In this document: piece by piece, positions 32,338-60,521 of the stretch
Numbering within the stretch: position 1 is the stretch's first letter
Layout: each line of letters begins with the position of its first letter
NCBI GenBank assembly: GCA_963761305.1
Contig: CAVXGK010000002.1
Coordinates: forward strand, 2,304,001-2,368,000
Source: an uncultured Gemmatimonadaceae bacterium
GTDB lineage: Bacteria; Gemmatimonadota; Gemmatimonadetes; Gemmatimonadales; Gemmatimonadaceae
DNA: 64,000 nucleotides
Direction: 5' to 3'
The notes under the pieces: model-generated
Database searches by the model: none
What the model was told of the DNA's origin: nothing
What the model saw: the letters and a program-made list of their open reading frames with translations, nothing else
Program-made: the position numbers and the translations under genes

Positions 32338-33440
32338 CCGCCTCGCCCGCTGTCCACCCGTCCACCCGTCCACCTGTCCACCCGCTGTTGTCCGTCCGCA
32401 ACCTCGTCAAGAATTTCCCCATCAAGAAAGGCGCATTCGGCAAGGCTGCCGGCGTCGTTCGCGCGGTGAACGACGTCTCGTTCGACGTGATGCCCGGCGA
32501 AACGCTCGGGCTCGTCGGCGAATCGGGATGCGGAAAGTCGACCACGGGACGCATGATTCTTCGTCTCATCGAACCCACCGCCGGCCGCGTGGAGTTCGAC
32601 GGCATCGACCTCACCGCGCTCGACGCGCGCGCGATGCGAACGATCCGGCGACGAATTCAGGTCATCTTCCAGGATCCCTTTTCGTCCCTCAATCCGCGCA
32701 TGACCGTCGGCGCGATCGTGCGCGAGGGGCTCACGATCCACAAGATCGCCGAGGGCGCCGCGGCCGACACGCGCGTGCGGCAACTGCTCGACGAAGTCGG
32801 GCTTCGTCCCGAGTACGTGTCGCGCTATCCGCATGAGTTTTCCGGCGGCCAGCGACAGCGCATCGGCATTGCCCGCGCGCTCGCCGTCGAGCCGAACTTC
32901 ATCGTCTGCGACGAACCGGTCTCGGCGCTGGACGTATCGGTGCAGGCGCAGGTCATCAACCTGATGCAGGACCTGCAGCGCGATCGCGGCCTCGCCTACC
33001 TGTTCATCGCCCACGATCTGTCGGTCGTCGAACACATCGCCGACCGCGTCGCCGTGATGTACCTCGGCAAGATCGTCGAGCTGGCGAGCGCGGCCGATCT
33101 CTATCGCGACCCGGTGATGCCGTACACCCAGGCGCTGCTCTCGGCCGTTCCGGTTCCCGACCCCAGCGCCAAGAAGTCGCGCGTCGTGCTGACCGGCGAT
33201 GTCCCGTCGCCCGCGAACCCGCCAACCGGATGCGTGTTCCATCCTCGCTGCCAGCATCCGGCCAAGGATGCCGCGTGCAGCGAGATCGTTCCGCCCCTCG
33301 AGGAAAAGGCGCCGCAGCACTGGGCGGCGTGCATCAAACAGCCTCCCACCGGGGTAGACTGGCGAGTGCAACAGGCGGCGGGAGGAACGAAGCAGCCTTT
33401 CCGGTGGACCGGTGGACCGGTGGACCGGTCGACCGCGTAG
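32334..33440 (+). CDS. Peptide ABC transporter ATP-binding protein (OppF/DppF-like); both termini contain octamer-repeat sequence
   Basis: [26 protein letters not shown]. Start is GTG 32334 (GTGA overlap) or TTG 32388. Confidence 0.92.
32351..32382 (+). repeat. Octamer array (YGTCCACC)x4
   Basis: TGTCCACC CGTCCACC CGTCCACC TGTCCACC. Confidence 0.9.
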
Positions 33441-33493
33441 CCCGTCGCCTTTCGCCGTTCCGGTCTACCGGTCTACCGGTCCACCTGTCAACC
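33403..33493. repeat. Inverted pair of 4-unit octamer arrays
   Basis: (GGTGGACC)3 GGTCGACC at 33403-33434; GGTCTACC GGTCTACC GGTCCACC TGTCAACC at 33462-33493. Confidence 0.9.
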
Positions 33494-33500
33494 TCTCCCA

Positions 33501-35063
33501 ATGACAATCATCGACGTCCGCGAACCAGACGTACCTGCGGCGCTGGGCGCGCGCCCGTCCGCGCTCGACGATCGCGCGCTCTTCGGGCATCCGCGCGGCC
33601 TCGGTCTCCTGTTTTTCACGGAGATGTGGGAGCGGTTCTCGTACTACGGCATGCGCGCGATCCTCGTGCTCTACCTGGTCAACGCGCTCAAGTGGGACAC
33701 GCCGCGCGCGGCGAATCTGTACGGCACGTACACGATGCTCGTGTACCTCACGCCGGTCATCGGCGGATTTCTCGCCGATCGGCTCATCGGCACACGACGC
33801 TCGCTCGTCATCGGCAGCCTGGTCATCGCGCTCGGCCACTTCACGCTGGCCTTCCCCGGGATGACCACGTTCTACGTCGGGCTCGGGCTCATCATCGTCG
33901 GCACCGGCTTCTTCAAGTCGAACGTGTCGACGATGGTCGGACAGATCTATCCCGAGGGCGATCGGCGTCGCGATTCCGGTTTCACGATCTTCTATGTCGG
34001 CATCAATGTCGGCGCGGCGCTCGGCCCGCTCTTCTGCGGAGGCTTCGCGCAGAACCCGCGCTTTGGCTGGCATTGGGGGTTCGCCTGCTCCGGCGTCGGC
34101 ATGCTGCTCGGACTCGTCACCTACCTGTGGGGCCGCGACAAGTACTTGCCCGGCATCGGCACGTCGCCGACGCGTACCAGGGTCACGGCTGTCTCGGCGG
34201 ACGCGGGCCCAAAAGCGAACACGACTCTCCACGGCGCGATCGGCGTCGTCCTCGGCGGCGTGCTCGGTTGGTTCCTCGGCGACGCGAGCGTGCTCGGCAT
34301 TCTGATGGGCGTCGTGATCGGCCCCGCGCTCACGATCAGCTTGCTCGGCTCGCACGGCGAAGAACGAAAACGCGTCGTCGCACTTTTCATCGTCGTGTTT
34401 TTCGTGATCTTCTTCTGGGCGGCCTACGAGCAGACCGGCAGCTCGATGAATCTCTTCGCCGACAAGAACACCAACCTCAAGGCCGGCTCATTCAACATTC
34501 CGTCGAGCTGGTTTCAGTCGGTGAATCCGTTCGACATCATCATCTTCGCGCCGCTGTTCGCGTGGATGTGGACGGTGCTCGGCAAGCGCCGCCGCGAACC
34601 GTCGACGGCGCTCAAGATGGTGCTCGGCCTCGCGCTGCTGGCAACGGGATTCCTCTTCATGGTCATCGGCGGCGAGCGCGCCGACACCGGCATTCTCGTC
34701 AGCCCGTTCTGGCTCGTCGCCGCATACACGTTCCACACGTGGGGCGAGCTCTGTCTCTCACCGGTCGGCCTGTCGTACGTGACGAAGGTCGCGCCCGTGC
34801 GATTCGCATCGCTCCTCATGGGCGTGTGGTTCCTGGCCAATGCCGCCGCGAACAAGATCGCCGGCGCCGTCGCCGCGTTCACCCCGACGCCCGGCGAGAA
34901 GCCGCAAGCGATCGCCGGTGGACTGGCGGGATTCATCCAGTCGGTGAGCGCGACGAATCACGGTTTCTACATGATCTTCGTCGTCGCGGGGTTCGCGGCC
35001 GCCGCGCTGATGCTGCTGTTCGTACCGCTCCTCAAACGCCTGACGAGCAGCGTGGCTGCGTGA
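33501..35063 (+). CDS. POT/PTR family di/tripeptide:H+ symporter
   Basis: FGHPRG, ExxERFxYY (EMWERFSYYG), GTGFFKSN, FYVGINVG, GELCLSP. Confidence 0.95.
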   Translation: MTIIDVREPDVPAALGARPSALDDRALFGHPRGLGLLFFTEMWERFSYYGMRAILVLYLVNALKWDTPRAANLYGTYTMLVYLTPVIGGFLADRLIGTRRSLVIGSLVIALGHFTLAFPGMTTFYVGLGLIIVGTGFFKSNVSTMVGQIYPEGDRRRDSGFTIFYVGINVGAALGPLFCGGFAQNPRFGWHWGFACSGVGMLLGLVTYLWGRDKYLPGIGTSPTRTRVTAVSADAGPKANTTLHGAIGVVLGGVLGWFLGDASVLGILMGVVIGPALTISLLGSHGEERKRVVALFIVVFFVIFFWAAYEQTGSSMNLFADKNTNLKAGSFNIPSSWFQSVNPFDIIIFAPLFAWMWTVLGKRRREPSTALKMVLGLALLATGFLFMVIGGERADTGILVSPFWLVAAYTFHTWGELCLSPVGLSYVTKVAPVRFASLLMGVWFLANAAANKIAGAVAAFTPTPGEKPQAIAGGLAGFIQSVSATNHGFYMIFVVAGFAAAALMLLFVPLLKRLTSSVAA

Positions 35064-35069
35064 TCGGTC

Positions 35070-36809
35070 TCACGGCCATCTGAACACGCTCGACGGGACG
35101 GTCTGTTCTCGCGTCGCTTGGACGTCGAACGGCTCGGGCAGAAAGAACGTCGTGAAATCCGAGCTTGAAACACGAACCTCGAATCGGTGTCCGCCGATCT
35201 CGGGGTTCAGCACATATGCGAGGTCGAGTCGCCAGATCCGCGGCGAGCGGGGCGGCGCGGAACCGAGCAGACTCACGCCGACCGACCCACGCGTTGGCGT
35301 GTTCACGCCGTAGGGAATGTCACCGGCCCACAGCCGGCCGGCGTCGGCGAAAGCGCCGACGCCGAAGTCGAACAATCCGTTCGGCCGTCCGAGAAACGAT
35401 CGCGTGTCGAGCCGCGCGACGAATCGCCGGGCGCCGGGTGTGCTCGACCCCGAAAACCCGCGCACTCCACCCACGGGATCGCTCAGCGTGAAGTTGTACG
35501 GGATGCGCTGCTGCCAGCCGCCGCTGAAGCCGAGCGAGAGCGTCGTCGTGTTGTTCACCGTGGGCTTGAAATACTGAATGGCGAGCGCGTCGGCGAGCAG
35601 GCCGTCCCACACGTTCGCCGAATTGTCGTGGCGGCCTTCGCCCTCCGCCTGGAGACGGAGCGCGTTGTTGCGCCCGATCGCGCCCACGTACAGATCGCTC
35701 GACGCGAAGATGTCGTCGTCGCGCGCGCCGAGCGCCGTGACGCTTCGGCCGAAGAGCGTACCAACCTGAAATCCGACCGGAAAGTCTTCCGTCGCCGTCA
35801 ACGCGTCGAGCCCTCTCACCTGGGTGAAGCCGATGTCGCGCACACCCCACAGCATGTTGACGCGAGCGATGCGATGGTCGACGTATCGATTGAGCAGCGC
35901 CGTGCTCGTGTCGGGCGCGAACCCGTGGTTGGTCACGAGCACCTGCGTATCGCCGGGGCGCTCGTCGTCGCCCGACAGCGAGATGCCGAAGAGACTGAGC
36001 CGTCCCGGCGGCCCGATGCGCATCACGCCACCCACCTCGAAGAAGCTCCGCACCAGCCGAATCGCGTGGTTCGAGTTGATGTCGTTCTCGAACTGCACGT
36101 AGTCGTCGAGCGTTCCGAGCTGAACGATCCACGCGAAACGTTGGATGTCGGTGTAGAACGGGTGAAATCCGCGCCCGACCCAATCGGTCCCGAGCGGGTT
36201 GCGAAACGCCTGCACGCTGAGCGTGTAGGGCCGTCCGAACATCTGGTTGTCGATGAGTCGCCCTCCGAACGCGTCGCGGAACGCGCCGCCGTCCCGCCAA
36301 TCGCCCGCGAGGTAGATGCCTTCACCATCGAGATTGGCGTCGCCGAATCGAAAGAAACGGACGAACGGGTGTCCTGGCCCGATCGCCGCATCCAGCACGA
36401 GCGAGATTTCGTCGCTCGTCTCGACGAGCAGCGTGACGCCGCCCTGATCGTCCGAGATCGCGCGCACCGAGGCATCGGCGATGAACGGCTGCGCACGCAG
36501 GATGCGCTCCGAGTCGGCGCGACGCAGTTCGTCGCATGCATCACCGCGCGAGAGGAGCAGAAATCGCGCGATGACCTCCGGGTTCGTCGTGACATGAATT
36601 GCCGAGAGGAAGCTGTGGATCAGCGGCACGTGCCGGAGAACCGCGGCCGTCGGCGCCGAGCTTCGAACCACGATGCCGTCGATGCGCTGGCCGAAACAGT
36701 GCACGAACACCGTGTCCGTCGTGGGCGTTTGCGCCCCCGCACTCGCGGCACTGCTGAGCAGCGCGACGCCGACGCAGCCGAGCAGGTGCCGAACGCTCAG
36801 GAGTCGAAT
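35070..36809 (-). CDS. Omp85/BamA-like outer-membrane protein with POTRA-like N-terminus; start codon uncertain
   Basis: SERILR..FI POTRA-like segment, GGVRGF barrel motif, FADAGRLW. The signal peptide lies upstream of the first GTG (36710). Confidence 0.7.
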   Translation of the reverse strand: MRLLSVRHLLGCVGVALLSSAASAGAQTPTTDTVFVHCFGQRIDGIVVRSSAPTAAVLRHVPLIHSFLSAIHVTTNPEVIARFLLLSRGDACDELRRADSERILRAQPFIADASVRAISDDQGGVTLLVETSDEISLVLDAAIGPGHPFVRFFRFGDANLDGEGIYLAGDWRDGGAFRDAFGGRLIDNQMFGRPYTLSVQAFRNPLGTDWVGRGFHPFYTDIQRFAWIVQLGTLDDYVQFENDINSNHAIRLVRSFFEVGGVMRIGPPGRLSLFGISLSGDDERPGDTQVLVTNHGFAPDTSTALLNRYVDHRIARVNMLWGVRDIGFTQVRGLDALTATEDFPVGFQVGTLFGRSVTALGARDDDIFASSDLYVGAIGRNNALRLQAEGEGRHDNSANVWDGLLADALAIQYFKPTVNNTTTLSLGFSGGWQQRIPYNFTLSDPVGGVRGFSGSSTPGARRFVARLDTRSFLGRPNGLFDFGVGAFADAGRLWAGDIPYGVNTPTRGSVGVSLLGSAPPRSPRIWRLDLAYVLNPEIGGHRFEVRVSSSDFTTFFLPEPFDVQATREQTVPSSVFRWP

Positions 36810-36812
36810 TGC

Positions 36813-37388
36813 CTACTTCCCCATTTTTCGCTTGAGCTCATCCAGCCGGCGCGCGGCATCCGCTTCGCGGTCGGCGCGGTCGCGGTCGCGTCCGAGCGCG
36901 TCGATCTCCGAGCGAACCGACGCACCCGCGGTGTCATCGAGGCCCAGCTCAGCGTCGCTGATCGGACCGCCGGCAACTCCATCAGGGGCGCCCGCGGGGC
37001 CGCCGGCCAGAATCGACTTCAGCTCGGCGGACATCTCCGAAACCTCTCGCTCGGCCAGCGCCACCTCTGATTCCTGCGCCGCGACTTTGCGCCGAAGCAT
37101 GTCCACTCGCTGGCTGTGCATTTGTTCGTATTTCGCGCCGAGCTCCGACGTCTCGCGGTCGCCGATGCCCTCGGCCAGCTGCTTGCGCCGACGCACCGTC
37201 TCGAGCTCTCGCTCTTCGCGCGACAAACGCTCGCGCGCCTTGGCGAGCCCGTCGCGCAAATCGTCGAGGCCGACCCGCGCCTGCACGAGGGTCTCTTTCA
37301 TGCGCGACGCAACGGCGCGCCGCTCCTCGGGACGCGTCGCGCGTGCGAGCAGCTCGTCGAACGAACGCCGAAAACCGTCAAATACCAT
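36813..37388 (-). CDS. PspA/IM30-like coiled-coil protein
   Basis: GAGGAG RBS, long helical heptads, C-terminal RLDELKRKMGK. Confidence 0.65.
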   Translation of the reverse strand: MVFDGFRRSFDELLARATRPEERRAVASRMKETLVQARVGLDDLRDGLAKARERLSREERELETVRRRKQLAEGIGDRETSELGAKYEQMHSQRVDMLRRKVAAQESEVALAEREVSEMSAELKSILAGGPAGAPDGVAGGPISDAELGLDDTAGASVRSEIDALGRDRDRADREADAARRLDELKRKMGK

Positions 37389-37438
37389 CGCGGTGTTGCT
37401 CCTCGGGCCGGTTCGTGTACGATACTGGACGGGTTCAT

Positions 37439-38158: not shown

Positions 38159-38179
38159 GAGCGAGACTGACGAAGCGCG

Positions 38180-38911
38180 CTACGCCAGTCGCTTCCAGCG
38201 GAACTCGTCTCTCACCTGCCGCATCAACCGCTCGGGCGAATGCACGGCGGGAAAGAAGAGCGTGTCGCTCACCGAGTTGAGCGCCGTCCGCAGCAGACCG
38301 AACCGCGCCGCCGCATTGGCAAAGAGCGCGGAGAGTCCGTGTTCTTCAGCCAACCGATGGTCGGCAGCGAGCTCGAACCCGCGGCGCCCCATCGCCTCGT
38401 AGTAATCGAGATCGGGGCCGCCGCGCGTCGAGTGGCGCTGCTCGATGAAGTCGGGGAAGATTCCGCTCAACCAGAGCGCGTAGTTGCCGAGGTGCGTTCG
38501 CACGAGGAAGCTGCGGCGCGTGTCCGGATCATTCAGATCTTCCCAGAGCGCGACGATCGCGTCGTACACCTCGTCATCCGACTCCGAGATCCGGTGCGCG
38601 CGGTCGCGCACGCCGAAACTGAGCACGACGGCGGTGACGTAGTCGGCGAGCGCGCGGTCCGATTCTCCAGCCTGCCGCAGCGATGCGCGGATCATCACGT
38701 AGGCGAAGAGCGTGAGGGACGCGTGCGCGCCGCGGGGATCACGCCTCAGCGCGGCCGACAGGCGGGGATCGTCGAGGATCACGTCGATTCCCTCGTCCGC
38801 CAGGCGCGCCTCGAGCGTCGCGAGGTCCTGTCCGGACTCGCTGGCCAGGAGCCGCGCCGCGAGCTGAGCGTCGTCGCGGGTGAGTCGGTGTCGTGTGTCG
38901 GCGAGAATCAT
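38180..38911 (-). CDS. Hypothetical helical protein, 243 aa
   Basis: Fills the gap with GC3-rich codons; HLGNYALWLSGIFPD, YYEAMGRRGF. Confidence 0.75.
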   Translation of the reverse strand: MILADTRHRLTRDDAQLAARLLASESGQDLATLEARLADEGIDVILDDPRLSAALRRDPRGAHASLTLFAYVMIRASLRQAGESDRALADYVTAVVLSFGVRDRAHRISESDDEVYDAIVALWEDLNDPDTRRSFLVRTHLGNYALWLSGIFPDFIEQRHSTRGGPDLDYYEAMGRRGFELAADHRLAEEHGLSALFANAAARFGLLRTALNSVSDTLFFPAVHSPERLMRQVRDEFRWKRLA

Positions 38912-38919
38912 TGATGCCT

Positions 38920-38951
38920 GGTGGACAGGTGGACAGGTGGACGGGTGGACA
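38920..38951 (-). repeat. Octamer array x4
   Basis: Plus strand GGTGGACA GGTGGACA GGTGGACG GGTGGACA. Confidence 0.9.
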
Positions 38952-39136
38952 GGAACAGCCGAGCCCCCTCTAGCCCTTCTACCCCTCTAATCCCTCAAAC
39001 CGTTCAACTAGCCAGTCTCGTTCCATCCCCCTTTCAAGGACGCGCGGGTCGGACACCGGTTACCCCCTGAAACGCCTGCGCCCCGCGCGTGTATTGCACT
39101 TGGTAGATTGGATTAAGTCCTTGGGCTCGTGGTTCC

Positions 39137-39168
39137 CGTCCACCTGTCCACCCGTCCACCTGTCCACC
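39137..39168 (+). repeat. Octamer array x4
   Basis: CGTCCACC TGTCCACC CGTCCACC TGTCCACC. Confidence 0.9.
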
Positions 39169-39175
39169 TGCCCTC

Positions 39176-40770: not shown

Positions 40771-41714
40771 CGCGCGAGGCGGATCTCTCCGCCATCCGCA
40801 CCATCCCGGTCGCGCGGCGTGCGAACAAGGTGAACGCCGACGAGTTCGCGCAGATCCCGCGCGACGATCGGTCGTTCAACGCCTTCCTCGCTTCGCTGCC
40901 CGACGTGCTCGTCGCGCGCGATTTCATCGCCGTCGTCGACGCGATCGTCGAGGCCGCGTGCCGCCAGCGCGGCGTCGTCGCCATGCTCGGCGGCCACATC
41001 GTGAAGACCGGCATCTCGCCGCTCCTCATCGACCTGATGCGACGACGCGTCATCACACACATCGCGATGAACGGCTCGGCGGCGATTCACGACTACGAGG
41101 TCGCGCGATTCGGCGCCACGTCGGAAGACGTCGCCGCCGGATTGCGCGACGGCACGTTCGGCATGGCCGAAGAAACCGGGCGCGAGATGAACGGCGCTTT
41201 CGTCGACGGCATGCGCGCGCAGCAGGGGATGGGCGAAGCGCTCGGCCGCGCCCTCGTCGCGCGAACGGATCTCGCGCACCCGGAGATGTCGATACTGCGC
41301 GCCGCGACCGAGCTCGGTGTTCCCGCGACGGTGCACGCCGCGCTCGGCGCCGAGATCATCCATCAACACCCGGCCGCGAGTGGCGCCGCGATCGGCGACA
41401 CGAGCCACCGCGACTTTCGCCGTCTTGCCGCGTCGCTCATCGACATCGACGACGGCGGCGTGGTGCTCAACCTCGGCAGCGCGGTGATCATGCCCGAGGT
41501 GTTTCTCAAGGCGCTCACCATCGCACGCAACCTGAACGATGGCCGCCCGCGCAGCTTCGTGTCCGCGGACTTCGACATGCAGCGCCATTATCGTCCCCGC
41601 GTAAACGTCGTACAGCGCCCGACGCTGGACAGCGGGAAAGGCTACGAGATTACCGGCCACCACGAGATCATGATTCCGCTGTTGGTGTGGGCCGTGGTAG
41701 GTCGCCTGGGGTAA
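40767..41714 (+). CDS. Deoxyhypusine-synthase-like fold protein of unknown function; start uncertain (CTG 40767 or GTG 40830)
   Basis: GGHIVKTG, AMNGSAAIHD, FGMAEETG, NLGSAVIMPEVFLK, GHHEIM. Confidence 0.7.
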   Translation: MTREADLSAIRTIPVARRANKVNADEFAQIPRDDRSFNAFLASLPDVLVARDFIAVVDAIVEAACRQRGVVAMLGGHIVKTGISPLLIDLMRRRVITHIAMNGSAAIHDYEVARFGATSEDVAAGLRDGTFGMAEETGREMNGAFVDGMRAQQGMGEALGRALVARTDLAHPEMSILRAATELGVPATVHAALGAEIIHQHPAASGAAIGDTSHRDFRRLAASLIDIDDGGVVLNLGSAVIMPEVFLKALTIARNLNDGRPRSFVSADFDMQRHYRPRVNVVQRPTLDSGKGYEITGHHEIMIPLLVWAVVGRLG

Positions 41715-41718
41715 GGCG

Positions 41719-41774
41719 GGTGGACCGGTGGACCGGTGGACCGGTGGACCGGTGGACCGGTGGACCGGTGGACC
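41719..41774 (+). repeat. (GGTGGACC)x7 perfect tandem array
   Basis: Read directly; starts 4 nt after the stop at 41714. Confidence 0.95.
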
Positions 41775-41816
41775 CGATAAGACCAACGGAGTCCACGCGA
41801 GTAAGTCAGCCGGAAG

Positions 41817-41884
41817 GCTCAAGCTGAAAGCTCAAGCTGAAAGCTCAAGCTGAAAGCTCAAGCTGAAAGCTCCCAGCTTTCAGC
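41817..41884 (+). repeat. (GCTCAAGCTGAAA)x4 plus an inverted partial copy
   Basis: Four perfect 13-mers at 41817-41868; GCTGAAAGCT-ccc-AGCTTTCAGC hairpin. Confidence 0.92.
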
Positions 41885-42196: not shown

Positions 42197-42287
42197 TGCG
42201 GAATCTCCAGAAGAACGAAGAACCAACAGGTCCTGCTCTCTACCGTACGATCTTCCTCGCCTAACTGTTTCAGACCGAGTTTTTCTA

Positions 42288-42314
42288 CCCGTCCACCCGT
42301 CCACCCGTCCACCC
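42288..42314 (+). repeat. Octamer array (CGTCCACC)x3 with four CCC tracts
   Basis: CCCGTCCACCCGTCCACCCGTCCACCC immediately before GTG 42315. Confidence 0.9.
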
Positions 42315-43391: not shown

Positions 43392-43846
43392 GCAAAGAGA
43401 CTCGGATCGCTCACGCTTTAGCGGCGAGCACCACCCGGTGCGTCAGCCGCCACTCCCCGATCCATCGCTCTGCACGCCGTCACGATCGCCCTGCTCGTCA
43501 TTTCCTTCGTCGCCGACGCCGGTCCGGTCGCGACATCGGTCACTCCAACGCGAAGTGACCGCCACCCACCGACAACACCGTCGCGCGCCAGGAACTCGGC
43601 GCCCCGTCGGTCGGCCGCGCCTCGTTCCAAGACCGTCGGCCCGGGGTCTGACGACGACGATCCACCGCGCCGAACTCTCGATCATCGAGGTCGCGTGCGC
43701 TCGGCGCCCACGTCCGTTCCAAATCGCGAGTGTTCGTCCGACGTCGCCACGCGTCGAGAGCGCTCCGCAGCGCGCACGCATCGCCGCGGATCGCGTTCCG
43801 GTCGCAACGCACTGACGCCACACGACACCGCGCCTCAGCACGATCG

Positions 43847-44014
43847 CCACGGATCGAAGAACGCCCGCACGGGATCGACGTTCGCCGGCACCGGATCGAA
43901 GTCCGCCGGCACCGGATCGAAGTCCGCCGGCACCGGATCGAAGTCCGCCAGCACCGGATCGAAGTCTGACAGCAACGGATCAAAGTCCGACAGCACCGGA
44001 TGGAAGTCCGACTC
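43847..44014. repeat. 21-bp tandem repeat x8 (consensus CACCGGATCGAAGTCCGCCGG)
   Basis: Eight contiguous units, most conserved in the middle and more divergent at both ends; no spacers. Confidence 0.92.
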
Positions 44015-44791
44015 CGACCGACCGCAATACGCGCGCGAACCCCACGCGTCCCGTCCTCTTCTCGCGCACCGACTCCACGACGCGCTTCGCCACTGACGCT
44101 CGAGCCACTCGCACACCGACCCGCGCCTTTGCTCGGCGAACGACGCCCCGCGCGTCCATCACCGCGTCTCCCGCTCCGCGGACAGGCGCTCGAGCAAACC
44201 TTCGCATTCCCCGGTGCTCGGCCCCATCAGCCAAGGGCAACGCGTCCTCGACCGGAACGGCGATCCATGGGGCGCCCTCAACCGGTCGCCATACCGCGCC
44301 ATTCTCGACAACGTCGCGTCGATGTTCAGCTGCGGCGCCATCAGCCAGACCACGTCCAAGCGCGTCGCGCCCTCGCGCCGGCCGAGAATCGCGTCCTCCG
44401 CAAAGTGCTCGAGCTCGACCACGTGCGACCGACCGCGCGGTCCTCGCAGCGCAGCTCCGTCAGGGCCCGGATTTCTTCGCGCGCACAGGGGCACCAAGAC
44501 GAGCAACCCGCGCGCACTCGTCGCGCGGGGCGGCGGAACGGGCGGCGACGCGTGATCGCACGTCTCGACGTTCGTCGCCGCCGACCTGTCGCCGGATTCT
44601 CTCACCATGCGTCGCGACTCAGCCGCCTTACCGGCCGCCGCCGTCGCCCCCCGCGGCGGCACGAAGCCCATTGCCCATCCCGTCCACCGTCCACCGTCGT
44701 CCACATAACTTTCAATACCATCTTGACCAGTTACCTCATTCTTCCAGACCCTAACCTGAACCCATAGATTATTCCCGCCCAACTGTTTCCG

Positions 44792-44877
44792 GGCTCCAGC
44801 TCAAGGCTCCAGCTCAAGGCTCCAGCTCAAGGCTCCAGCTCAAGGCTCCAGCTCAAGGCTCCAGCTCAAGGCTCCAG
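44792..44877 (+). repeat. (GGCTCCAGCTCAA)x6 plus a partial unit
   Basis: Perfect 13-mers read directly, upstream of lipA. Confidence 0.95.
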
Positions 44878-44898: not shown

Positions 44899-44930
44899 CG
44901 TCCACCCGTCCACCCGCCAACCAGGCCACC
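44899..44930 (+). repeat. Octamer array x4 (degenerate)
   Basis: CGTCCACC CGTCCACC CGCCAACC AGGCCACC; 7 nt before the lipA TTG. Confidence 0.8.
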
Positions 44931-47965: not shown

Positions 47966-47997
47966 CGTCCACCCGTCCACCCGTCCACCGGTCCACC
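47966..47997 (+). repeat. Octamer array x4
   Basis: (CGTCCACC)3 GGTCCACC; 6 nt before the pdhC ATG. Confidence 0.9.
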
Positions 47998-48003: not shown

Positions 48004-49341
48004 ATGGCCACCAAAGTCTTCATGGAGGCGCTCTCGCCCACGATGGAAGAAGGGCGCCTCGTCAAATGGATGAAGAACGAAGGCGACGCCGTGAAGAGCG
48101 GCGACGTGCTCGCCGAAGTGGAGACGGATAAGGCGGTCATGGAACTGGTCGCGCGCGGCGACGGCGTGCTCCGTAAGCGTCTCGTGAACGAGGGCGACGC
48201 CAGGCCGGTCGGGCAGATGGTGGCGGTTATCGCGGCTCCCGACGAAAACATCGACGCGGTGGTCGCGGAGGCCGGTTCCCAACCGGCGCCCGCCACGGCG
48301 GCTGCGCCGGCCGCCACGGCCCCACAGCAAGCGCCAGCTCCTGCAGCTCCTGCCCCGCCCCCCGCCCCCGCTCCGCCTCCGGCTGCCCCTCCGCCGCCAC
48401 TGCCCCCCGTTAGTTCCGGTCCACCGGTCAACCGCTCCACCGGTCAACCGCCGCAGCCTACCAATGGTGGGCAAGTCAGGTCCTCGCCCCTCGCTCGACG
48501 TCTCGCGTCTGACCGCGGCCTCGACATCTCCGCCGTCCAGGGCTCGGGCCCCGGCGGCCGCATCATCAAGCGCGACATCGAAGCCGCCGCCGCAGCGCCG
48601 TCAGCCGGCCGTCCACCCGTCCACCCGTCCACCCGTCCACCCGAATCGGACTTCGAGGACATTGGGCTGACGCAGATCCGAAAGACGATCGCCAAGCGTC
48701 TCGCGGAATCGATCGGGCCGATCCCGACGTTCTATCTCACCGCCGACATCGACCTCACGCGCGTCACCGAGCTGCGCGCCGCGATGCTCGAGATGGGCGA
48801 CGAGTTCAAGGTCTCGGTCAACGACGTCCTCATGAAGGCCGTCGCCACCGCCCTCGCGCAGCATCCGGAAGTGAACGCGCACTGGCTCGGCGACCGCATC
48901 CGGTATCATCACCGCGTCCACCTCGGCATGGCCGTCGCCACGAACGACGGGCTGATCGTGCCGGTGATCTTCGACGCCGACCGCAAGCGCATGAGCGAGA
49001 TCTCCGCCGAAGCACGCGAGCTCGCCAAGCGCGCGCGCGAACGGAAGCTCAAGCCCGAGGAGTACACGGGCTCCACCTTCTCGATCTCGAACCTCGGCAT
49101 GTTCGGCATCGACCAGTTCACGGCGATCATCAATCCGCCGGAGGTCGGCATTCTCGCGATCGGCACCGCGCACGACGTTGTCGTCCCGACGACGGGTGGA
49201 CGGGACAGCGCGTTCGCCGTTCAGAAACGCCTGCGTCTTACGATGAGCTGCGACCACCGCGCCGTCGACGGCGCCGTCGGCGCCACGTTCCTGCAGACGC
49301 TGAGGCGGCTGATCGAGAACCCGTTGATGCTGGTGTTCTGA
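48004..49341 (+). CDS. pdhC: Pyruvate dehydrogenase E2 dihydrolipoamide acetyltransferase
   Basis: Lipoyl domain VETDKA, PSBD SPLARR...GSGPGGRI, catalytic DHRAVDG. Confidence 0.95.
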   Translation: MATKVFMEALSPTMEEGRLVKWMKNEGDAVKSGDVLAEVETDKAVMELVARGDGVLRKRLVNEGDARPVGQMVAVIAAPDENIDAVVAEAGSQPAPATAAAPAATAPQQAPAPAAPAPPPAPAPPPAAPPPPLPPVSSGPPVNRSTGQPPQPTNGGQVRSSPLARRLASDRGLDISAVQGSGPGGRIIKRDIEAAAAAPSAGRPPVHPSTRPPESDFEDIGLTQIRKTIAKRLAESIGPIPTFYLTADIDLTRVTELRAAMLEMGDEFKVSVNDVLMKAVATALAQHPEVNAHWLGDRIRYHHRVHLGMAVATNDGLIVPVIFDADRKRMSEISAEARELAKRARERKLKPEEYTGSTFSISNLGMFGIDQFTAIINPPEVGILAIGTAHDVVVPTTGGRDSAFAVQKRLRLTMSCDHRAVDGAVGATFLQTLRRLIENPLMLVF

Positions 49342-51773: not shown

Positions 51774-52627
51774 CTACCGGTGGACCGGTGGACCGGTGGA
51801 CCGGTGGACCGCTAGAGCCTGAGAGCGTCGGGGTTCCAACCCCGGCCGCGCAATTCTCGGCCTTCGGCTTGGAGCCGGAAGCCGGGAGCCAGGAGCCTGG
51901 AGCTGCGTTTCCGCCCGCGGTCCCGGTCCACCGGTCAACCGGTCAACCGGTCCACCGCCTCTTAGTCGAGCATCTCGGCCTCACCCCCTACGCCGATGCG
52001 CTCGAGTATCAGCGCGCCGTCGCCAAGGCGCGCATCAGCGGCGAGATCCCGGACGACGTCCTGCTCCTCGTCGAGCATCCGCCGGTCGTGACGCTTGGCC
52101 GCACGTCGAAGGAGCGGCATCTGCTCGCGTCGCCCGCGCAGCTGGCGGCGCGCGGCATCGAGCTGTTCGAGGTGGAGCGCGGCGGCGACGTGACGTTTCA
52201 CGGGCCGGGGCAGCTTGTCGGCTACCCGATCATCGATCTCAAGCAGCATCGCCGCGACCTGCACTGGTATCTGCGCACGCTCGAGTCGGCGCTCATCGAG
52301 GCGCTCGGCGAGTTCGGGATCCCGGCCGAGCGAAACGTCGGATTCACCGGCGTCTGGACCCAGGGGCGCAAAATCGCCTCGATCGGCGTGCACGCGCGCG
52401 ACTGGGTGACATGGCACGGCTTCGCCCTCAACGTGTCGACTGACCTCACCTACTTCGACACGATCGTCCCCTGTGGCATCGACGCCGTGACCATGACGTC
52501 GATCGCCCGGGAAACGGCGGGAAACACGGTGGACATGACGCGTGTAGAATCCGCGGTCGTCACCGCGCTCGCCGCGGCCTTTGGCCTGACTCCGCGCGCC
52601 GTCGCTCGGGTCGCGGACGTCCGCTAG
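51770..52627 (+). CDS. lipB: Octanoyltransferase LipB with a 60-aa repeat-derived N-terminal insert
   Basis: LVEHPPVVTLG, RGGDVTFHGPGQ, KIASIG, HGFALN, IVPCG; GTG overlaps the lpdA stop. Confidence 0.93.
   Translation: MTTGGPVDRWTGGPLEPESVGVPTPAAQFSAFGLEPEAGSQEPGAAFPPAVPVHRSTGQPVHRLLVEHLGLTPYADALEYQRAVAKARISGEIPDDVLLLVEHPPVVTLGRTSKERHLLASPAQLAARGIELFEVERGGDVTFHGPGQLVGYPIIDLKQHRRDLHWYLRTLESALIEALGEFGIPAERNVGFTGVWTQGRKIASIGVHARDWVTWHGFALNVSTDLTYFDTIVPCGIDAVTMTSIARETAGNTVDMTRVESAVVTALAAAFGLTPRAVARVADVR
51778..51957. mobile_element. Putative non-autonomous palindromic element (180 bp) with octamer-array arms
   Basis: (GGTGGACC)4 at 51779-51810; GGTCCACC GGTCAACC GGTCAACC GGTCCACC at 51925-51956; internal heptamers (GRAGCYN)x5 at 51871-51905. 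Mobility is inferred. Confidence 0.55.
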
Positions 52628-52641: not shown

Positions 52642-52679
52642 CGTCCACCCGTCCACCCGTCCACCCGTCCACCCGTCCA
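52642..52679 (+). repeat. Octamer array (CGTCCACC)x4 plus a partial unit
   Basis: Directly abuts ATG 52680. Confidence 0.92.
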
Positions 52680-53105
52680 ATGATCCATTCTTCCGTCAGC
52701 CGCAGGACCGTTTTCGTCGGCGCGGCGTTGGCTTCGGCCGCGCTCATCGCCGCGTGCGAGGACAAGCGAGTCAAGGAGCTCAACGCCGGCATCACCCGCG
52801 ACTCGGCCGTCACCGTGATGGCGCACGACCTCAAGCCCGGCGCGACGTCGGACTCGTTCCCGAACGTGTACACGCGTGAGCGGTTTCTCCTCGGCGGAAA
52901 GAGCGTGGAAGTGCTCTACTTCACCCCGGAGAACGACAAGGCCCGCGTGGCCGCCACCGGTCAGGAAGCGCTGAAGGTCAGGGACTCCATCCCATACAAC
53001 AGACTCACGCCGATCGTGTTCATCGACAATCGGCTGGCTGGCCGAGGATGGGCGTACTGGGACAGCATGTCGACCGCCAACAAGATCCCGGTGAAGAAGC
53101 ACTAG
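52680..53105 (+). CDS. Hypothetical lipoprotein
   Basis: SRRTVF plus hydrophobic stretch plus lipobox LIAAC; C-terminal TPIVFIDNRLAGRGW. Confidence 0.75.
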   Translation: MIHSSVSRRTVFVGAALASAALIAACEDKRVKELNAGITRDSAVTVMAHDLKPGATSDSFPNVYTRERFLLGGKSVEVLYFTPENDKARVAATGQEALKVRDSIPYNRLTPIVFIDNRLAGRGWAYWDSMSTANKIPVKKH

Positions 53106-53160: not shown

Positions 53161-53181
53161 GCGTCCACCGGTCCACTAAAT

Positions 53182-53215
53182 CGAAAGGGCCCCGTCTTTC
53201 GACGGAGCCCTTTCG
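53182..53215 (-). terminator. Terminator hairpin for the large surface-protein gene
   Basis: Minus strand CGAAAGGGCTCCGTC-GAAA-GACGGGGCCCTTTCG, 19 nt after the stop. Confidence 0.8.
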
Positions 53216-53234
53216 TACTGCTTGCACCCCAGAA

Positions 53235-56200: not shown

Positions 56201-56318
56201 AGTGCACCGTGCTGTCAATCGGGTTCGGCGGGACCGTCACTTTGTCGCCGCAAGCCACTGTCAGGCCCGCGTACGCAAAGACGCCCGCCACTAAAAGAGA
56301 ACGAACTACGGATGGCAT
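53235..56318 (-). CDS. Large surface lipoprotein with N-terminal bacterial Ig-like (Big_2) domain, 1027 aa
   Basis: AAGGGGG RBS, lipobox LTVAC, SVTVSP...VTWTSSSSTIATVDQTGVVTAV Big_2 pattern; T/A/N/G/S/V-rich. Confidence 0.85.
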   Translation of the reverse strand: MPSVVRSLLVAGVFAYAGLTVACGDKVTVPPNPIDSTVHSVTVSPAGPIPMKIGDKVTLAASVDAGAGVTDRTVTWTSSSSTIATVDQTGVVTAVAGGTATIIAASKANPSVTGAAVVTVGATVNATVTVASVNQTTCSVLGNCNSVPANLAAIMGQIDVTMNVDPGTQTLTGIDLILNCTGPGNSGTDTVVASQNLGSSDKVPLAAEAAAAPVQLSYNTANFNSTTGVPSFKNGNCTIKGRARTAQGTPAGSNTETLVLVNPDVIVGTMASTKQATNPLTGLAWHGGDVTISELPVFFTPNRSSVSATISYEGKNGSVGSAAQSLTFLDTNNPASTNPLNIDSKTDANSDATVGVVAVDNSGNTFQNPNGFGIVTASSYLANPGAGGVPQFCGAFCGGTNPFRLDTQKPTSGGLTLASNTDQNTGPNGFLNASFRFAGDSAAGYRGADRLGFDAAGVPPFMSCVPVGGVTTTSNCDFSGVDSVTVFFQTGTSNTGTFTTVANPANLAETATGTANLLRQITTDRLGNADTSWVCPTGACPQWSAGAAPASAKFGVDLTPPTLTFVSGEAQGNVYNNPATPGNYVFNVIDNGTIGSSGIGTYAGPGTVLVAQVREWNGFTTSTSVTGFENVVSSNIAAAARAGLGEIFSATPNSTLNPCVIGRFNATSAKAATNALPVFAANGTQVGFCSPVPYTPGGVPTASTFPSSGNVPQVNGYFTTEIIASDQANNVSSAFKATILGDNSIPTVVNVDVPPTITGNATTALPANVTDNAATGVGDFVASWPAVAYPSGIYQYAITTGPGVAFDNVLTNSTPISPTLPNFIKNLQVNNGVAAPTATVANTTNATDFFVSAQDPSANVGFKDIVLASQPTNFVGGATAWTNFSGGFAISASAANVSNGPSSVTAANPTSTVLTAVATGATGIFTNPFVATQLWYRPTTTAVWFLAPSTDAVASAPSTSDNGINRTWNFAFTWNPPAATPASHLGGPQNLTPPNPGTIVLDVVIIGINANGDAIQTPIQTITLTTP

Positions 56319-56833
56319 CTTACCCCCTTGGTAAGTGATGCGATGTGAAAACCAAGAACTTCGACTTCGCTACCCTTCGACTTCTTACATCCTCACAGCG
56401 CGCCACGCCTTCGGTGAGACGACCGCGTTCGTCCGCGACACGTCGGGGAATCGTGGCTCTTCCCCCTGGAAAATTCGCAAAACACAACACTGGCACAAAA
56501 AGAGTCAGTTCGCCAAACGACCCAAGATATGGGCGACCGTCAAGTCGGTCAAGAACGCGGTTCTCGACGACTTACCCGGCTTACCGCTCTGTTTTCTCGA
56601 ACTGTCGCCTGCACAGCCTTGCGCGCGGCCCAGAAACCAGCCAACAAAATTGACACAAAGCCACGCGAACCCCGAGGCCGAAATTGGCCCTGGTGTCGGA
56701 TTAGGACGCGGACCCTCGCCGCAGGTAACGCCGACCGTCACGCATTCCGGACTTCGCAACCAATTATTTGCTACAGCGTGACTTCCCGCACGGCGCCGCT
56801 ACCGAAACCAACCCGAAGCGATAACTTGCCGCC

Positions 56834-58951
56834 ATGCAGCCGAGCGACGTCGCCCCCACCCCCAGTCCACTCGTCTATCCCTCTCGAGAACGAAGCGTCG
56901 ACGCAACCCCACGGGACTTTACCGCGGAGCTGAACCGCGAACAGGCCGCTGCGGCCACTCATGGCTCGGGGCCCCTCCTCATCATCGCCGGGGCCGGGAC
57001 CGGAAAAACCAGGACCCTGGTGTACCGGGTCGCACACCTTATAGAACGGGGGGTTGCTCCCGAGAGGATTCTCCTCCTCACCTTCACCCGTCGCGCCGCG
57101 CACGAGATGCTCTCCCGCGCCGAGCGGCTGGTCGGGTCGGCATCAACCCGGGTGCAAGGCGGAACGTTCCACGCCACGGGGCATCGGTTGCTCCGCAAGT
57201 TCGGTCCCGAGGCGGGACTCGCCCGCGACTTCTCGATCATGGACCAGGGCGACGCCGAAGACCTCATGCAGCTCGCCCGCGGCAGCCTCGGATTCGGCAA
57301 ATCCGAAAAGCGATTCCCCAAGAAGGAAACGCTGCACTACGTCTACTCTCGGCACATCAACGCCGAGATCCCGATCGAGGCGCTGATCGAGCGCGAGTTC
57401 CCGCAGTTCCTCGAGCAGATGCCCGACATGGTGCGCGTCTACGCCGAGTACGTGAGCCGGAAATCTGAGCGCAACCTGGTCGACTACGACGACCTGCTGC
57501 TCTTCTGGGCCTTGATGCTCGAGCAGTCGCCGGCGCTCGCCGACCGCATCGCGGGGCAATACGATCACATTCTCGTCGACGAGTATCAGGACACGAACCT
57601 GCTCCAGGCGCGCATCCTCCGCGGGATGTGCCGTACTCATACGAATATCTCCGTCGTCGGCGACGACGCGCAGAGCATCTACTCGTTCCGCGGCGCCAAC
57701 TTCCGGAACATCCTGGATTTTCCGAAGCAGTTCGCGGGCACGGAGGTCGTGGCGCTCGAGCAGAACTATCGCTCGACGCAGCCGATCCTCGATACGACGA
57801 ACACGTTGATCTCACGCGCGCTCGAGCGATTCACCAAGGCGCTGTGGACGACGCGCGCCGGTTCGGAGCCGGCGTGGCTCGTCACCGCGCGCGACGAACA
57901 GCTGCAAACGCGCTTCGTCGTCGATCGGATTCTCGAATTGCACGAGGAAGGCACGCCGCTCCACGAGATGGCGGTGCTCGTGCGCGCAGCGTACATGTCG
58001 GCCGACCTCGAGATCGAGCTCACCAACCGGAACATCCCGTTCGAGAAGTGGGGCGGTCTCAAGTTCCTCGAGGCCGCGCACGTGAAGGACGTCCTCGCGT
58101 TCCTGCGCGTGCTAGACAATCCGCGCGACGAGGTGAGTTGGTACCGCATTCTCATGCTGATGCCCGGCATCGGCGACGCCACGGCCCGCGCGATCATGCA
58201 AACACTGGCCGAGCGGTCGTGGGACCCGGATGCCTTCGGGCGGTTCGACCCGCCGCCGCGCGCGCGCGACGCACATCGCGATCTCGCGGCGCTGCTCCGC
58301 ACGCTGCGTGGGGCGAAGCGCGGCGAAGGCGGGGTCGGCGAAGACATTGACGAGATCCGACAACTATATGATGGGGTTCTGGCGGAGCGTTATGATCGCT
58401 CGGAACCTCGACTGGCTGATCTCGACCAACTGCGCGTAATCGCCGCCGGCTACCCGAGCCGCGCCGCATTCCTGGCCGCGCTCGCCCTCGAGCCGCCGCA
58501 GAGCACGCAGGATCTACCGACGGGCAGCCAATCCGAGGACGACGCGCTCGTCATCAGCACCGTCCACAGCGCCAAGGGCAAAGAGTGGGACGCGGTGTTC
58601 GTGATCTGGGCGGTGGACGGCTGGTTCCCGTCGTCGCGCTCGCTCGACGACGAAGACCAGCTGGAGGAGGAACGCCGATTGATGTACGTCGCGATGACGC
58701 GCGCCAAGAATCACCTCGCGGTGACGTACCCACTCCACGTTTACGCCACGCGCCGCGGGTCCGACTATTCGATCGACCAACTCTCCCGCTTCATCGACCG
58801 CGGCGTCCGCGACAAGATGCGCCGCGTCGTGCCGCAAGATTCGTCGCCCGCCGCCGAGATGCCGCCCGAACGCACCGCCGCGCCGCCGATCGATCTCCGT
58901 GCGCTGCTCCGTGGACGCTTCGAACCGCCGAGCGGTCGGGCGCCAGCCTAG
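56834..58951 (+). CDS. UvrD/PcrA/Rep family ATP-dependent DNA helicase
   Basis: AGAGTGKT, LTFT, TFH, VDEYQDTN, VGDDAQSIYSFRGA, QNYRS, TVHSAKGKE, EEERRLMYVAMTRA. Confidence 0.95.
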   Translation: MQPSDVAPTPSPLVYPSRERSVDATPRDFTAELNREQAAAATHGSGPLLIIAGAGTGKTRTLVYRVAHLIERGVAPERILLLTFTRRAAHEMLSRAERLVGSASTRVQGGTFHATGHRLLRKFGPEAGLARDFSIMDQGDAEDLMQLARGSLGFGKSEKRFPKKETLHYVYSRHINAEIPIEALIEREFPQFLEQMPDMVRVYAEYVSRKSERNLVDYDDLLLFWALMLEQSPALADRIAGQYDHILVDEYQDTNLLQARILRGMCRTHTNISVVGDDAQSIYSFRGANFRNILDFPKQFAGTEVVALEQNYRSTQPILDTTNTLISRALERFTKALWTTRAGSEPAWLVTARDEQLQTRFVVDRILELHEEGTPLHEMAVLVRAAYMSADLEIELTNRNIPFEKWGGLKFLEAAHVKDVLAFLRVLDNPRDEVSWYRILMLMPGIGDATARAIMQTLAERSWDPDAFGRFDPPPRARDAHRDLAALLRTLRGAKRGEGGVGEDIDEIRQLYDGVLAERYDRSEPRLADLDQLRVIAAGYPSRAAFLAALALEPPQSTQDLPTGSQSEDDALVISTVHSAKGKEWDAVFVIWAVDGWFPSSRSLDDEDQLEEERRLMYVAMTRAKNHLAVTYPLHVYATRRGSDYSIDQLSRFIDRGVRDKMRRVVPQDSSPAAEMPPERTAAPPIDLRALLRGRFEPPSGRAPA

Positions 58952-59314
58952 CCACTACCTCCGTTAGAGAGATTTCAACACAGATGCCGCAGATTTGAAC
59001 TGCAATTGCCGCAGATCTGCGGCATTGTCTTTGAAATCTGCGGCATCTGTGTTCAATTCTCTTGGCGAACGCGGTGGCTGGATCGTCGCGTCGACAATTT
59101 TCCAAGTCTGTTAGTTCAGATGTTGCCCGGACGCTTCGAACCGCCGAGGCGTCAGGCGCCGATCTAGCCACGGACTGTGTTCAAGAAAATGCAACGCAGA
59201 TGCCGCAGATCTGAACAGCGATTCCGCAGATCTGCGGCAATTGCAGTTCACATCTGCGGCATCTGCGTTTCAATTTTCTTGACTTAAGTAGTGGCTGGAT
59301 CGCCGCGCAGACAA
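58913..59314. repeat. Tandem duplication (about 216-bp period) carrying a 130-bp palindromic core
   Basis: GGACGCTTCGAACCGCCGAG at 58913 and 59129; cores 58950-59079 and 59166-59296 are built on CAGATGCCGCAGAT...CCGCAGATCTGCGG...ATCTGCGGCATCTG. Confidence 0.9.
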
Positions 59315-59321
59315 ACCTGTT

Positions 59322-60407
59322 TCATCGAACCGGCAGATTGCCTGGCTCGGGGCCGAGCCAGGTTCGAATGGAACCGAAGGGGTCGTCGGGCTTGGATTTG
59401 GCGAGGTCGATGATGCGGGAAATCGCGCGACGGAGGTCGCCGTCTTCGTGCACCCAGATGCGATCGAACAGGTCCAGATCCGTGTTGTAGATTCGGTGCG
59501 CGAGGAGTGCGGCGTTGTCGAGCCGCACGCGAGGCAGGGCCGCCGCGGGAATGGTGCGGAGCTGCGGGCCGAGCGTCGTCACCAGATCGTGTCGCGCGCG
59601 CGCATAGAGTGAGTCGCGCGCCGCAATGCGGGCCAGCGAGTCGGACGGGTGCGCGCGGAACGCCGAGTCGACGCGCGCGTAGAGCGTCGCCCAGAACTGC
59701 GCCAGCAGCTTGTCGTCCGCCCACCGCGCGTCGGCTTGATCGGCCGCCGCCGGTTCGCCGCGCGAGCGGAAGAACCACGCCGACCCGCGCGCACCGACGA
59801 AGCTGGCGAACGATTCGTTGAACACCGCTTGCCCCGACGCGTAAAACGTGTTGTGCGTCAGCTCGTGAATGACCGTGTTCGCGAGGTCGATGGTGTCGGC
59901 GCGCAACGACGTGGACAACAGTGGATCGTTGAACCAGCCGAGCGTGCTGAACGCCGGCGAGGGACGCAGGTAGACGTCGAAACCCTTGCTCGCCAAGTCG
60001 TGTTCCGCCGACTGCGCCGCGCCAAAATCGAAGAACCCCTTGTACGGCACGCGTCCGACGATCGGAAACCACCACGTGTACGGCGTGAGCCGGTCGGGGT
60101 ACGCGCCCGACAGCACGAGGACGAGCGTGTCTCGGTCGAGATGGCTATAGGTCGTGAAACTCTGGCGCGTGCGGAGATGGATCGAGTCGGCCGCAAACGC
60201 GCGCGCCGCCAGCACGAGGCGCAGCTTGGCTGCCGTTTCCGCCGGCGTCGCCGCATCGGCCACGATGGCCTCGATCGAGCGGCGCCGAGCCAGAATCCCG
60301 CCCTCCGCCCACGCCGCGCGGACGAGATACCGCCCGGTCGGCGAAAGGGCGAGCCAAGCAATCAACAGGAGAACGAGAACCGCAAGTACGCGACGGATTC
60401 GACGCAT
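59322..60407 (-). CDS. Putative zinc aminopeptidase (DUF2265-like)
   Basis: N-terminal anchor, WWFPIVGRVPYKGFF, AFSTLGWFNDP, HELTH, FNESFA. Confidence 0.88.
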   Translation of the reverse strand: MRRIRRVLAVLVLLLIAWLALSPTGRYLVRAAWAEGGILARRRSIEAIVADAATPAETAAKLRLVLAARAFAADSIHLRTRQSFTTYSHLDRDTLVLVLSGAYPDRLTPYTWWFPIVGRVPYKGFFDFGAAQSAEHDLASKGFDVYLRPSPAFSTLGWFNDPLLSTSLRADTIDLANTVIHELTHNTFYASGQAVFNESFASFVGARGSAWFFRSRGEPAAADQADARWADDKLLAQFWATLYARVDSAFRAHPSDSLARIAARDSLYARARHDLVTTLGPQLRTIPAAALPRVRLDNAALLAHRIYNTDLDLFDRIWVHEDGDLRRAISRIIDLAKSKPDDPFGSIRTWLGPEPGNLPVR

Positions 60408-60419
60408 TGATGAACTTTA

Positions 60420-60521
60420 GGTGGACCGGTGGACCGGTGGACCGGTAGACCGGGACTGCAAACGGCGATGAACGCGGTTTCGACGCCGTTCGCGGGCGAT
60501 CCACCGGTCCACCCGTCCACC
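60420..60521. repeat. Inverted pair of octamer arrays between divergent genes
   Basis: (GGTGGACC)3 GGTAGACC at 60420-60451; GATCCACC GGTCCACC CGTCCACC at 60498-60521. Confidence 0.88.

Follow-up and report, generated by a model that had tools for sequence, protein, structure and literature searches.

Polar arrays of seven or eight base repeats at gene borders have been in the literature since at least 2015 with no cause given for them, and PF05635 is a very common protein family without a function. We report here on a family of octamer arrays, with unit (N)GTCCACC, in a stretch of 64,000 nucleotides from an uncultured Gemmatimonadaceae bacterium (assembly GCA_963761305.1, contig CAVXGK010000002.1, positions 2,304,001 to 2,368,000), referred to below as the window. 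The source genome, G000, has 5.2 Mb in 2 contigs and is 66% GC. We think it probable that the arrays are copies, lacking the gene, of the arms of a likely selfish cassette that encodes a four-helix-bundle protein of PF05635, and that it is the action of this cassette that seeds them and drives their turnover. The array pattern as such is already published for the heptamers of Xanthomonas, Nostoc and Beggiatoa, and what is new here is an octamer variant together with a partner gene.

Rehm et al (2015, PMC4692102) describe in their main text GGGAATC repeats in Xanthomonas and GGGGA(C/T)T repeats in Nostoc, with about 185 dispersed arrays of 2-26 units and a mode of four, which are G-rich on the sense strand after stops and antisense before starts, form inverted pairs, and are explained by quadruplexes. 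The octamer arrays resemble them in being dispersed, in the mode of four, in having the same polarity (145 of 175 intergenic arrays) and in forming inverted pairs (24 with the G-rich arm first, none in the reverse order), but differ in their 8-nt unit, in having GG tracts only, with no GGG for a three-tetrad quadruplex, and in belonging to Gemmatimonadaceae. The terms 'helix bundle', 'S23' and 'intervening' do not occur in that main text, and we find that GGGA(A/T)TC-type repeats flank a four-helix-bundle gene in Xanthomonas too. The TAACTGA repeats of marine Beggiatoaceae (MacGregor 2015, PMC4679880) are intergenic and lie a few bases before starts that have no Shine-Dalgarno (SD) sequence; the paper proposes a translational role and raises a mobile repeat-binding protein as a possibility, and in its text no partner gene is named and 'helix bundle' does not occur. 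They differ from the octamers in being AT-rich heptamers, mostly of 2-3 units and mostly start-facing.

The gene of the cassette leads to a second group of systems. According to Warrier et al (2016, PMC4990558), the intervening sequences (IVS) of 23S rRNA that bear an open reading frame (ORF; S23p/IVP; Coxiella, Leptospira) have terminal inverted repeats, which pair into a stem, around an ORF of PF05635, with tandem heptamers of varying number upstream of the ORF, and they are patchy in distribution and horizontally moved. The cassette is like them in its PF05635/TIGR02436 ORF and in terminal inverted repeats with a predicted long stem, but its neighbours are protein genes, it is found at several sites, and about 200 copies of its arms stand without the gene. 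The Avd protein of diversity-generating retroelements (DGRs) is a pentameric RNA-binding barrel similar to S23 proteins, and PF05635 has been linked to it (10.1101/2023.10.23.563531, PMC10053308). Its structures (4DWL, 8UB7) are a weak fold match to the cassette protein (E 0.21, TM 0.55), and a Foldseek search with a single-sequence model (pLDDT 63) had no match at E 0.001 or below. In contrast to a DGR there is no reverse transcriptase or template repeat beside the cassette gene, the one group II-like reverse transcriptase of the genome being about 690 kb away. Repetitive extragenic palindromes (REPs) with their REP-associated tyrosine transposases (RAYTs), miniature inverted-repeat transposable elements (MITEs) and the short tandemly repeated repetitive (STRR) heptamers of cyanobacteria all have many non-coding copies at gene ends and one rare gene-bearing copy. 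What sets our system apart from these is that the repeats are tandem octamers and that the cassette has no HUH or DDE transposase: the gene between the repeats is a four-helix bundle where REP/RAYT would have an HUH transposase (we did not search for a RAYT elsewhere in the genome), and the paired arms, unlike those of a MITE, share no internal sequence across 24 spacers. Our literature search, with most subscription journals and all supplements outside its scope, found no paper linking such arrays to four-helix-bundle genes.

The octamer cassette of G000 is at C1:1510307-1510991, on the other contig from the window, with its gene at C1:1510581. It consists of a G-rich arm, a leader of about 80 nt, an ORF of about 120 codons and a C-rich arm, the arms being (GGTGGACC)24 upstream of the gene and four GTC(C/T)ACC units, (GTCCACCG)4, downstream of it, and they end 1-10 nt from the stops of neighbouring genes. 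The window arrays have the same sequence and polarity as these arms. The gene matches PF05635/TIGR02436 with E 7.5e-27 in G000 and 2.2e-30 in the related genome G019, and intact orthologues of 119 aa with the same arms are present in G005, G017 and G019 at a second site and in G022 at a third, so that five genomes have the cassette at three different sites, with protein genes as neighbours at all three. In the G017 copy the arms are predicted to fold into a long stem (z -7.1). The empty sites are informative: the second site is in G000 a 46-nt gap with one G-rich unit, while at the G000 cassette site G005 and G017 keep a solo G-rich arm of 3-4 units past the stop and G019 has another family. 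Thus the cassette is gained and lost whole, and where it lands or has been there are solo arrays. The identity of solo arrays with arms, the polarity, the movement of the cassette between sites and the turnover of families are direct observations.

The original prediction, made from the letters of the window, had offered a mobile repeat targeting gene boundaries as one of two explanations, and this is supported, with the gene at C1:1510581 as candidate. It was also right that the window has no mobilising gene, as the candidate is outside it. It had proposed looking for empty sites at orthologous loci and for ORFs enclosed by arms; both exist, as the reciprocal empty sites that keep solo arms or one unit and as the PF05635/TIGR02436 gene between inverted arms.

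A TIGR02436 profile search of G000 gave 10 matches at 9 loci, 8 of them flanked by inverted arrays as judged by eye, mostly of differing units. One divergent four-helix-bundle gene (L008, C2:2381423-2381743) has no arms of its own, is apparently syntenic in relatives and is preceded by an octamer array, as host genes are; it is possibly domesticated. In two Gemmatimonadaceae cassettes (L116 and L136) the arms switch strand inside the array, head-to-head, unlike the G-then-C layout. GxxExxY (TIGR04256) genes at C2:2302109-2302444 and five further loci of G000 are flanked by CGCAGAG/CGCGGAG-type repeats with the same polarity (64/69), which makes a parallel system built on another protein; one of its copies is 1.6 kb before the window.

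Genome-wide, G000 has 254 arrays of at least 2 units and 210 of at least 3. An order-4 Markov sequence of 2 Mb, used as control, has no array of 3 or more units, so the window arrays are far above chance, and the window is the densest of 82 genome bins (16 arrays seen, 2.6 expected). Each unit, NGTCCACC, has 8 nt and no G tract longer than GG, and varies at unit positions 0 and 4; the linker base varies in runs within arrays. With a tolerant definition that allows degenerate units the 254 arrays have 2 units in 44 cases, 3 in 40, 4 in 90, 5 in 37, 6 in 12, 7 in 9, 8 in 8 and more in 14, with a maximum of 24; with a strict count the mode is again four (78/254). The modal length is 33-38 nt (90/254), and the distribution, a mode with a tail, is not geometric. 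The copy number fixed at four that had been predicted is thus rejected, the range being 2 to 24. Frame preservation as the source of the mode is also rejected, as there are no peaks at 7, 10 and 13 units, and the changes at positions 0 and 4 follow no clear A-to-N pattern such as DGR-like A-specific mutagenesis would give.

For placement we used our own hexamer-model gene set of 4161 genes, which is reliable for stops and approximate for starts. The C-rich strand has its 3' end within 20 nt of an opposite-strand stop in 74 of the 210 arrays and of a same-strand start in 46, with neither in 90, whereas for the other array end the figures are 27, 10 and 173. Among 175 intergenic arrays, 73 are stop-facing and 43 start-facing, against 31 and 26 expected from random placement in the same gaps. 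Where the nearest gene end is a stop the strand is G-rich 89 times and C-rich 18 times, and where it is a start C-rich 56 times and G-rich 12 times, so that 145 of the 175 obey the rule of C-rich before starts and G-rich after stops. This polarity means that arrays face outward toward the nearest gene, whichever end it shows. Close pairs always have the G-rich arm first, which is the cassette order. Two other repeat families of G000 have the same polarity (CTCTGCG 64/69, a 16-mer 20/22); it is weak in a 7-mer family (16/27), and three further pattern families have too few arrays to test. The prediction that copy number and strand do not fit neutral slippage therefore holds in that the mode of four (90/254) and the polarity are more than slippage alone can give. 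Two other ideas were dropped: arms enclosing host genes for pairing of mRNA ends, with only 3 such pairs within 2 kb, and a preference for highly typical genes, the coding score being equal (235 vs 3218 genes, p 0.22).

Repeat and protein also go together across genomes. The octamer pattern is present in 8 of 24 genomes of the same genus and in none of 16 from other families, and the six of 25 genomes with a homologue of at least 74% identity are the same six that have 78-372 pattern matches. (In G004 all 21 octamer matches are on one contig, C161, possibly a mis-binned contig or a transfer.) Sister proteins carry sister arms, and the sister repeats occupy the same junctions. For the sister family GCCGTC(A/C/G)A there are 41, 94 and 94 matches in three known carriers and 0-1 in 20 of 22 others, and a third family peaks at 48 matches in its known carrier, G018, with none in G000, and also occurs in 4 genomes whose cassettes were only partly retrieved. 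None of 24 arm units from outside the clade, taken from 70 of 186 relatives' loci, forms an exact array in G000, a weak test with only 39 units forming any. At the wider scale, inverted shared 7-mers flank 30 of 76 homologue loci from many phyla (80 surveyed, 4 dropped for short flanks) and direct ones 4; of 600 ordinary genes 18 have the inverted kind. In a quick tree with 168 rows (no period called in 80, 4 duplicate loci excluded) arm period clusters with protein, period 8 needing 6 changes against a shuffled mean of 14.6, and all 9 rows of the query's branch (SH-aLRT 95) have period 8. The gene has GGGA(A/T)TC-type arms in Xanthomonas and Rhodanobacteraceae, where it lies between accB-like and accC-like genes (named from their translations) and the C-rich arm reaches up to the following ATG, in Xanthomonas that of accC, which is the array-at-start geometry of the window with the gene in place.

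Several observations weigh against a cassette origin of the arrays. The six carriers are one clade of 86-90% identity, so that co-occurrence of gene and repeat may reflect shared descent and is not independent evidence. In G015 the homologue has arms of GGTAGGCC, yet the genome has 176 GTCCACC matches; G024, which is 61% complete, has 16 pattern matches with no close homologue found; and the sister family has 43 matches in G019 and 19 in G005 with no cognate gene found. The cassette gene of G000 is frameshifted near codon 100, although dnaE is also frameshifted in the assembly, so that this may be an assembly error. The cassette contains no nuclease, recombinase or reverse transcriptase. There is no called gene boundary within 20 nt of 90 of the 210 arrays. 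Finally, among the 24 pair spacers only 4 are alike, through a 7-mer array, and none matches the cassette interior, so that pairs are not simple internal deletions of the cassette, a possibility that we reject also because the spacer at 38950-39138 is native. In relatives these spacers have diverged too far to leave clean junctions in which a target-site duplication, as of a MITE, could be seen.

Some of these points are as expected if the arrays came first, made at gene ends by host slippage or repair, with the four-helix-bundle gene a passenger that recombines into arrays and adopts the repeat of its lineage. The solo arrays at the G000 cassette site could be a landing pad no less than a scar, in G005, G019, G015 and G024 arrays have outlasted the cognate gene or occur without one, and the linker base varies in runs as from slippage. 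However several cassette subfamilies occur in one genome, each with its own unit, the mode at four is not geometric, and arm period follows the protein tree, though linked inheritance would give the same. We consider this explanation unlikely, though it is the one among the alternatives that survives best.

If the arrays are instead gene-less arm copies seeded by the cassette, the nature of the protein suggests how it might act. Of its relatives with a solved structure, 2GSC and 2RLD consist of 5 chains; Xcc0516 forms a homopentameric toroid (PMC4990558), and the Avd pentamer (10.1101/2023.10.23.563531) contacts RNA with all five protomers and grips flipped-out bases between protomers. The cassette protein would be a pentamer, as its solved relatives are, and its binding target would be its own repeat, in RNA or in single-stranded DNA. 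Five sites arranged in a ring would cover about four periods and so fix the modal length at 33-38 nt, which is a fit and no test, and slippage would give the tail to 24 units. Arms would be seeded in trans, one at a time, facing the nearest gene; that the pair spacers are unrelated to the cassette, and sometimes native promoter DNA, does make it seem that arms are placed singly. The writing enzyme would come from outside the cassette, perhaps from the recombination or repair machinery of the host, perhaps as a reverse transcriptase acting in trans. In its full form the proposal is of a selfish element with no transposase, whose pentamer would recognise its own repeat and, helped by a host enzyme, produce arrays the size of the ring, about four units, next to gene ends; it is a tentative proposal, and we regard it as somewhat doubtful.

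The other explanation of the original prediction was that the C-rich array acts in initiation or regulation independently of an SD, and S1 or another RNA-binding protein might bind it. The strand before starts is indeed C-rich in 56 cases and G-rich in 12, the same proposal was made for TAACTGA by MacGregor (PMC4679880), and at 38911, 39176 and 52680 some relatives with no abutting array have an SD-like motif that is missing in G000. However stops exceed starts, by 89 to 56 for the nearest gene and by 74 to 46 within 20 nt. The starts behind arrays do lack an evident SD as claimed, but in this they are not special, as a 4-base SD match is present in 26% of 2046 ATG genes of G000 against 8% in a control window, leaving 74% with no SD. 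Inspection of the 16S 3' end (GGATCACCTCCTT), which had been advised, goes against the idea: the C-rich array pairs with the anti-SD at -2.9 kcal/mol, the control at -2.7 and the G-rich strand at -8.9. Nor are the arrays kept at orthologous starts. In an alignment of the window with 10 relatives, counted with one mismatch allowed, so that the sister unit GTCCAGC of G022, G024 and G019 is also included, none of the scored sites has an array of 2 or more units in the four more distant relatives, and three sites (41719, 42283 and 44900) are private to G000. At the same junctions relatives have other repeat families in the same polarity, or none; the pdhB-pdhC junction of G019 is a 5-nt gap with no array, and at start 39176 G015 and G024 have neither array nor SD.

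Four of the window arrays are also coding, among them one that had been placed 5 nt before a TTG start of oppF at 32388. There is a GTG in frame at 32334 that overlaps with the stop of oppD, the TTG codon is in 0 of 8 aligned relatives and all 8 have an upstream in-frame ATG or GTG, which makes TTG 32388 a very unlikely start. With most genes SD-less, a C-rich strand that cannot pair with the anti-SD, orthologues with no array and the oppF array coding, a role as substitute ribosome-binding site is not supported, and we think an initiation element of any of these kinds very improbable. Arrays at the SD position would be a by-product of arrays facing start codons, tolerated because most G000 genes need no SD.

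Slightly less probable again is a G-quadruplex or i-motif at gene borders with the four units as four G-tracts, as proposed for Xanthomonas and Nostoc. The mode of four and the polarity are as in the main text of Rehm et al (PMC4692102) and the G-rich strand has GG tracts, but GGTGGACN has two of these per unit and no GGG, so that four units are not a quadruplex minimum, about four units are also the size of the arrays that sister families, with one GG per unit, have at the same junctions, and the CTCTGCG (64/69) and 16-mer (20/22) families share the polarity. Least probable of all are host-domesticated signals for RNA processing or stability, with paired arms as RNase III or 3'-protective hairpins as in rRNA IVS, since although pairs (z -8.4) and whole cassettes (z -7.1) are predicted to fold into long stems, and RNase III excision of an IVS is shown for Coxiella (PMC4990558), close pairs are only 24 among 210 arrays, occupancy differs between genomes 86-90% identical, and pairs also lie between divergent genes where no single transcript has both arms.

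All 16 window arrays of at least 3 units were found where predicted, and there is indeed no array of even 2 units before 32351, a local gap in a genome with 210 arrays. The count of 13 with exactly four units stands if degenerate units are allowed (though the array at 42283 then has four and that at 52643 five) and falls to 8 with exact GTC[A/C]ACC units. The distances to ATG, GTG and TTG were computed correctly. Several arrays do precede starts, but those at 41719, 51779 and 51926 abut stops, and those at 33403, 48419 and 48611 are within genes. An Rfam search of the window gave no match. In oppF, with its likely start at GTG 32334, a four-unit C-rich array is in frame at the N-terminus (32352..32382, plus strand). 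The final codons have a four-unit array that is G-rich on the plus strand (33403..33433, minus), the left arm of an inverted pair whose right arm, four C-rich units (33463..33493, plus), ends 7 nt before ATG 33501 of a POT-family transporter gene; the pair has a predicted hairpin of -68.4 kcal/mol (z -8.4). Four units at 38920..38950 (minus) end 8 nt before ATG 38911 of a minus-strand gene; in four relatives this array is about 46 nt upstream of the start, with an SD between. Four more at 39138..39168 (plus) end 7 nt before GTG 39176 of a GT2 glycosyltransferase gene, and the spacer 38950-39138 is native DNA common to array-free relatives.

The three arrays found in none of the 10 relatives are one of 7 units, G-rich on the sense strand, 4 nt past the stop at 41714 (41719..41773, minus), one of 3 exact and 1 worn unit ending 1 nt before GTG 42315 of a DAO-family oxidoreductase gene (42283..42313, plus), and one ending 7 nt before lipA TTG 44938, outside a 13-mer array (44900..44930, plus), which had been taken as four full units and has 2 exact and 2 worn. 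Four units end 6 nt before pdhC ATG 48004 (47967..47997, plus), where relatives have other repeat families or the 5-nt gap, and four-unit arrays are in frame in PdhC linker 1 (48419..48449, plus) and linker 2 (48611..48641, plus). A pair follows lpd, its left arm of four units, G-rich on the sense strand, 5 nt past the lpd stop (51779..51809, minus) and its right arm of four units 5 nt from the stop of a minus-strand ORF ending at 51962 (51926..51956, plus). Four units and a worn fifth reach into ATG 52680 (52643..52681, plus). In the last pair the left arm of four units ends 12 nt before ATG 60407 of an aminopeptidase gene (60420..60450, minus), and a three-unit array (60499..60521, plus) ends 13 nt before dnaE ATG 60535, upstream of a conserved -10-like box.

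The in-frame arrays, in the PdhC linkers and at both OppF ends, are replaced by a sister family in relatives with the frame kept. The window also has 13-mer arrays at 41813-41872 (4.6 copies) and 44792-44877 (6.6 copies), each next to an octamer array and inward of it; they resemble the arms of another four-helix-bundle gene, at C1:796607, and the families are nested with the octamer outermost. At 43392-44790 there is about 1.3 kb of extra DNA that is in none of the 10 relatives and has no convincing gene, with 7.7 copies of a 21-mer at 43850-44010; G000 has 43 intergenic arrays of period 21. The dnaE gene (60535-63564) ends at 1009 codons with its C-terminus in another frame, probably through an assembly indel, while 4 relatives have 1162-1172 aa. 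A TAT(C/T)TT box 5-8 nt before the dnaE ATG (60522-60537) is present in G000 and 8 of 9 aligned relatives, G013 having TAGAAT, and TANNNT peaks genome-wide 6-9 nt before ATG in G000. From this peak G000 likely has a leaderless gene class, in which case the array at 60499 would fall outside the dnaE mRNA.

If the proposed element is real, with a separate repeat for each protein subfamily, the so far unexplained 7-8 base repeats of Xanthomonas, Nostoc, Beggiatoa and Gemmatimonadaceae would have a single explanation, their four-unit bias would need no quadruplexes, and the S23p/IVP family, from which Avd may derive, would have a function. One small protein and one short family-specific site make both questions, the cause of the arrays and the function of PF05635, testable. 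Between close relatives the arrays also change core genes (pdh, lipA, dnaE, opp) in their 5' leaders, in their 3' ends and in the linkers of their proteins, and the source of the arrays would be a notable driver of the turnover of regulatory regions.

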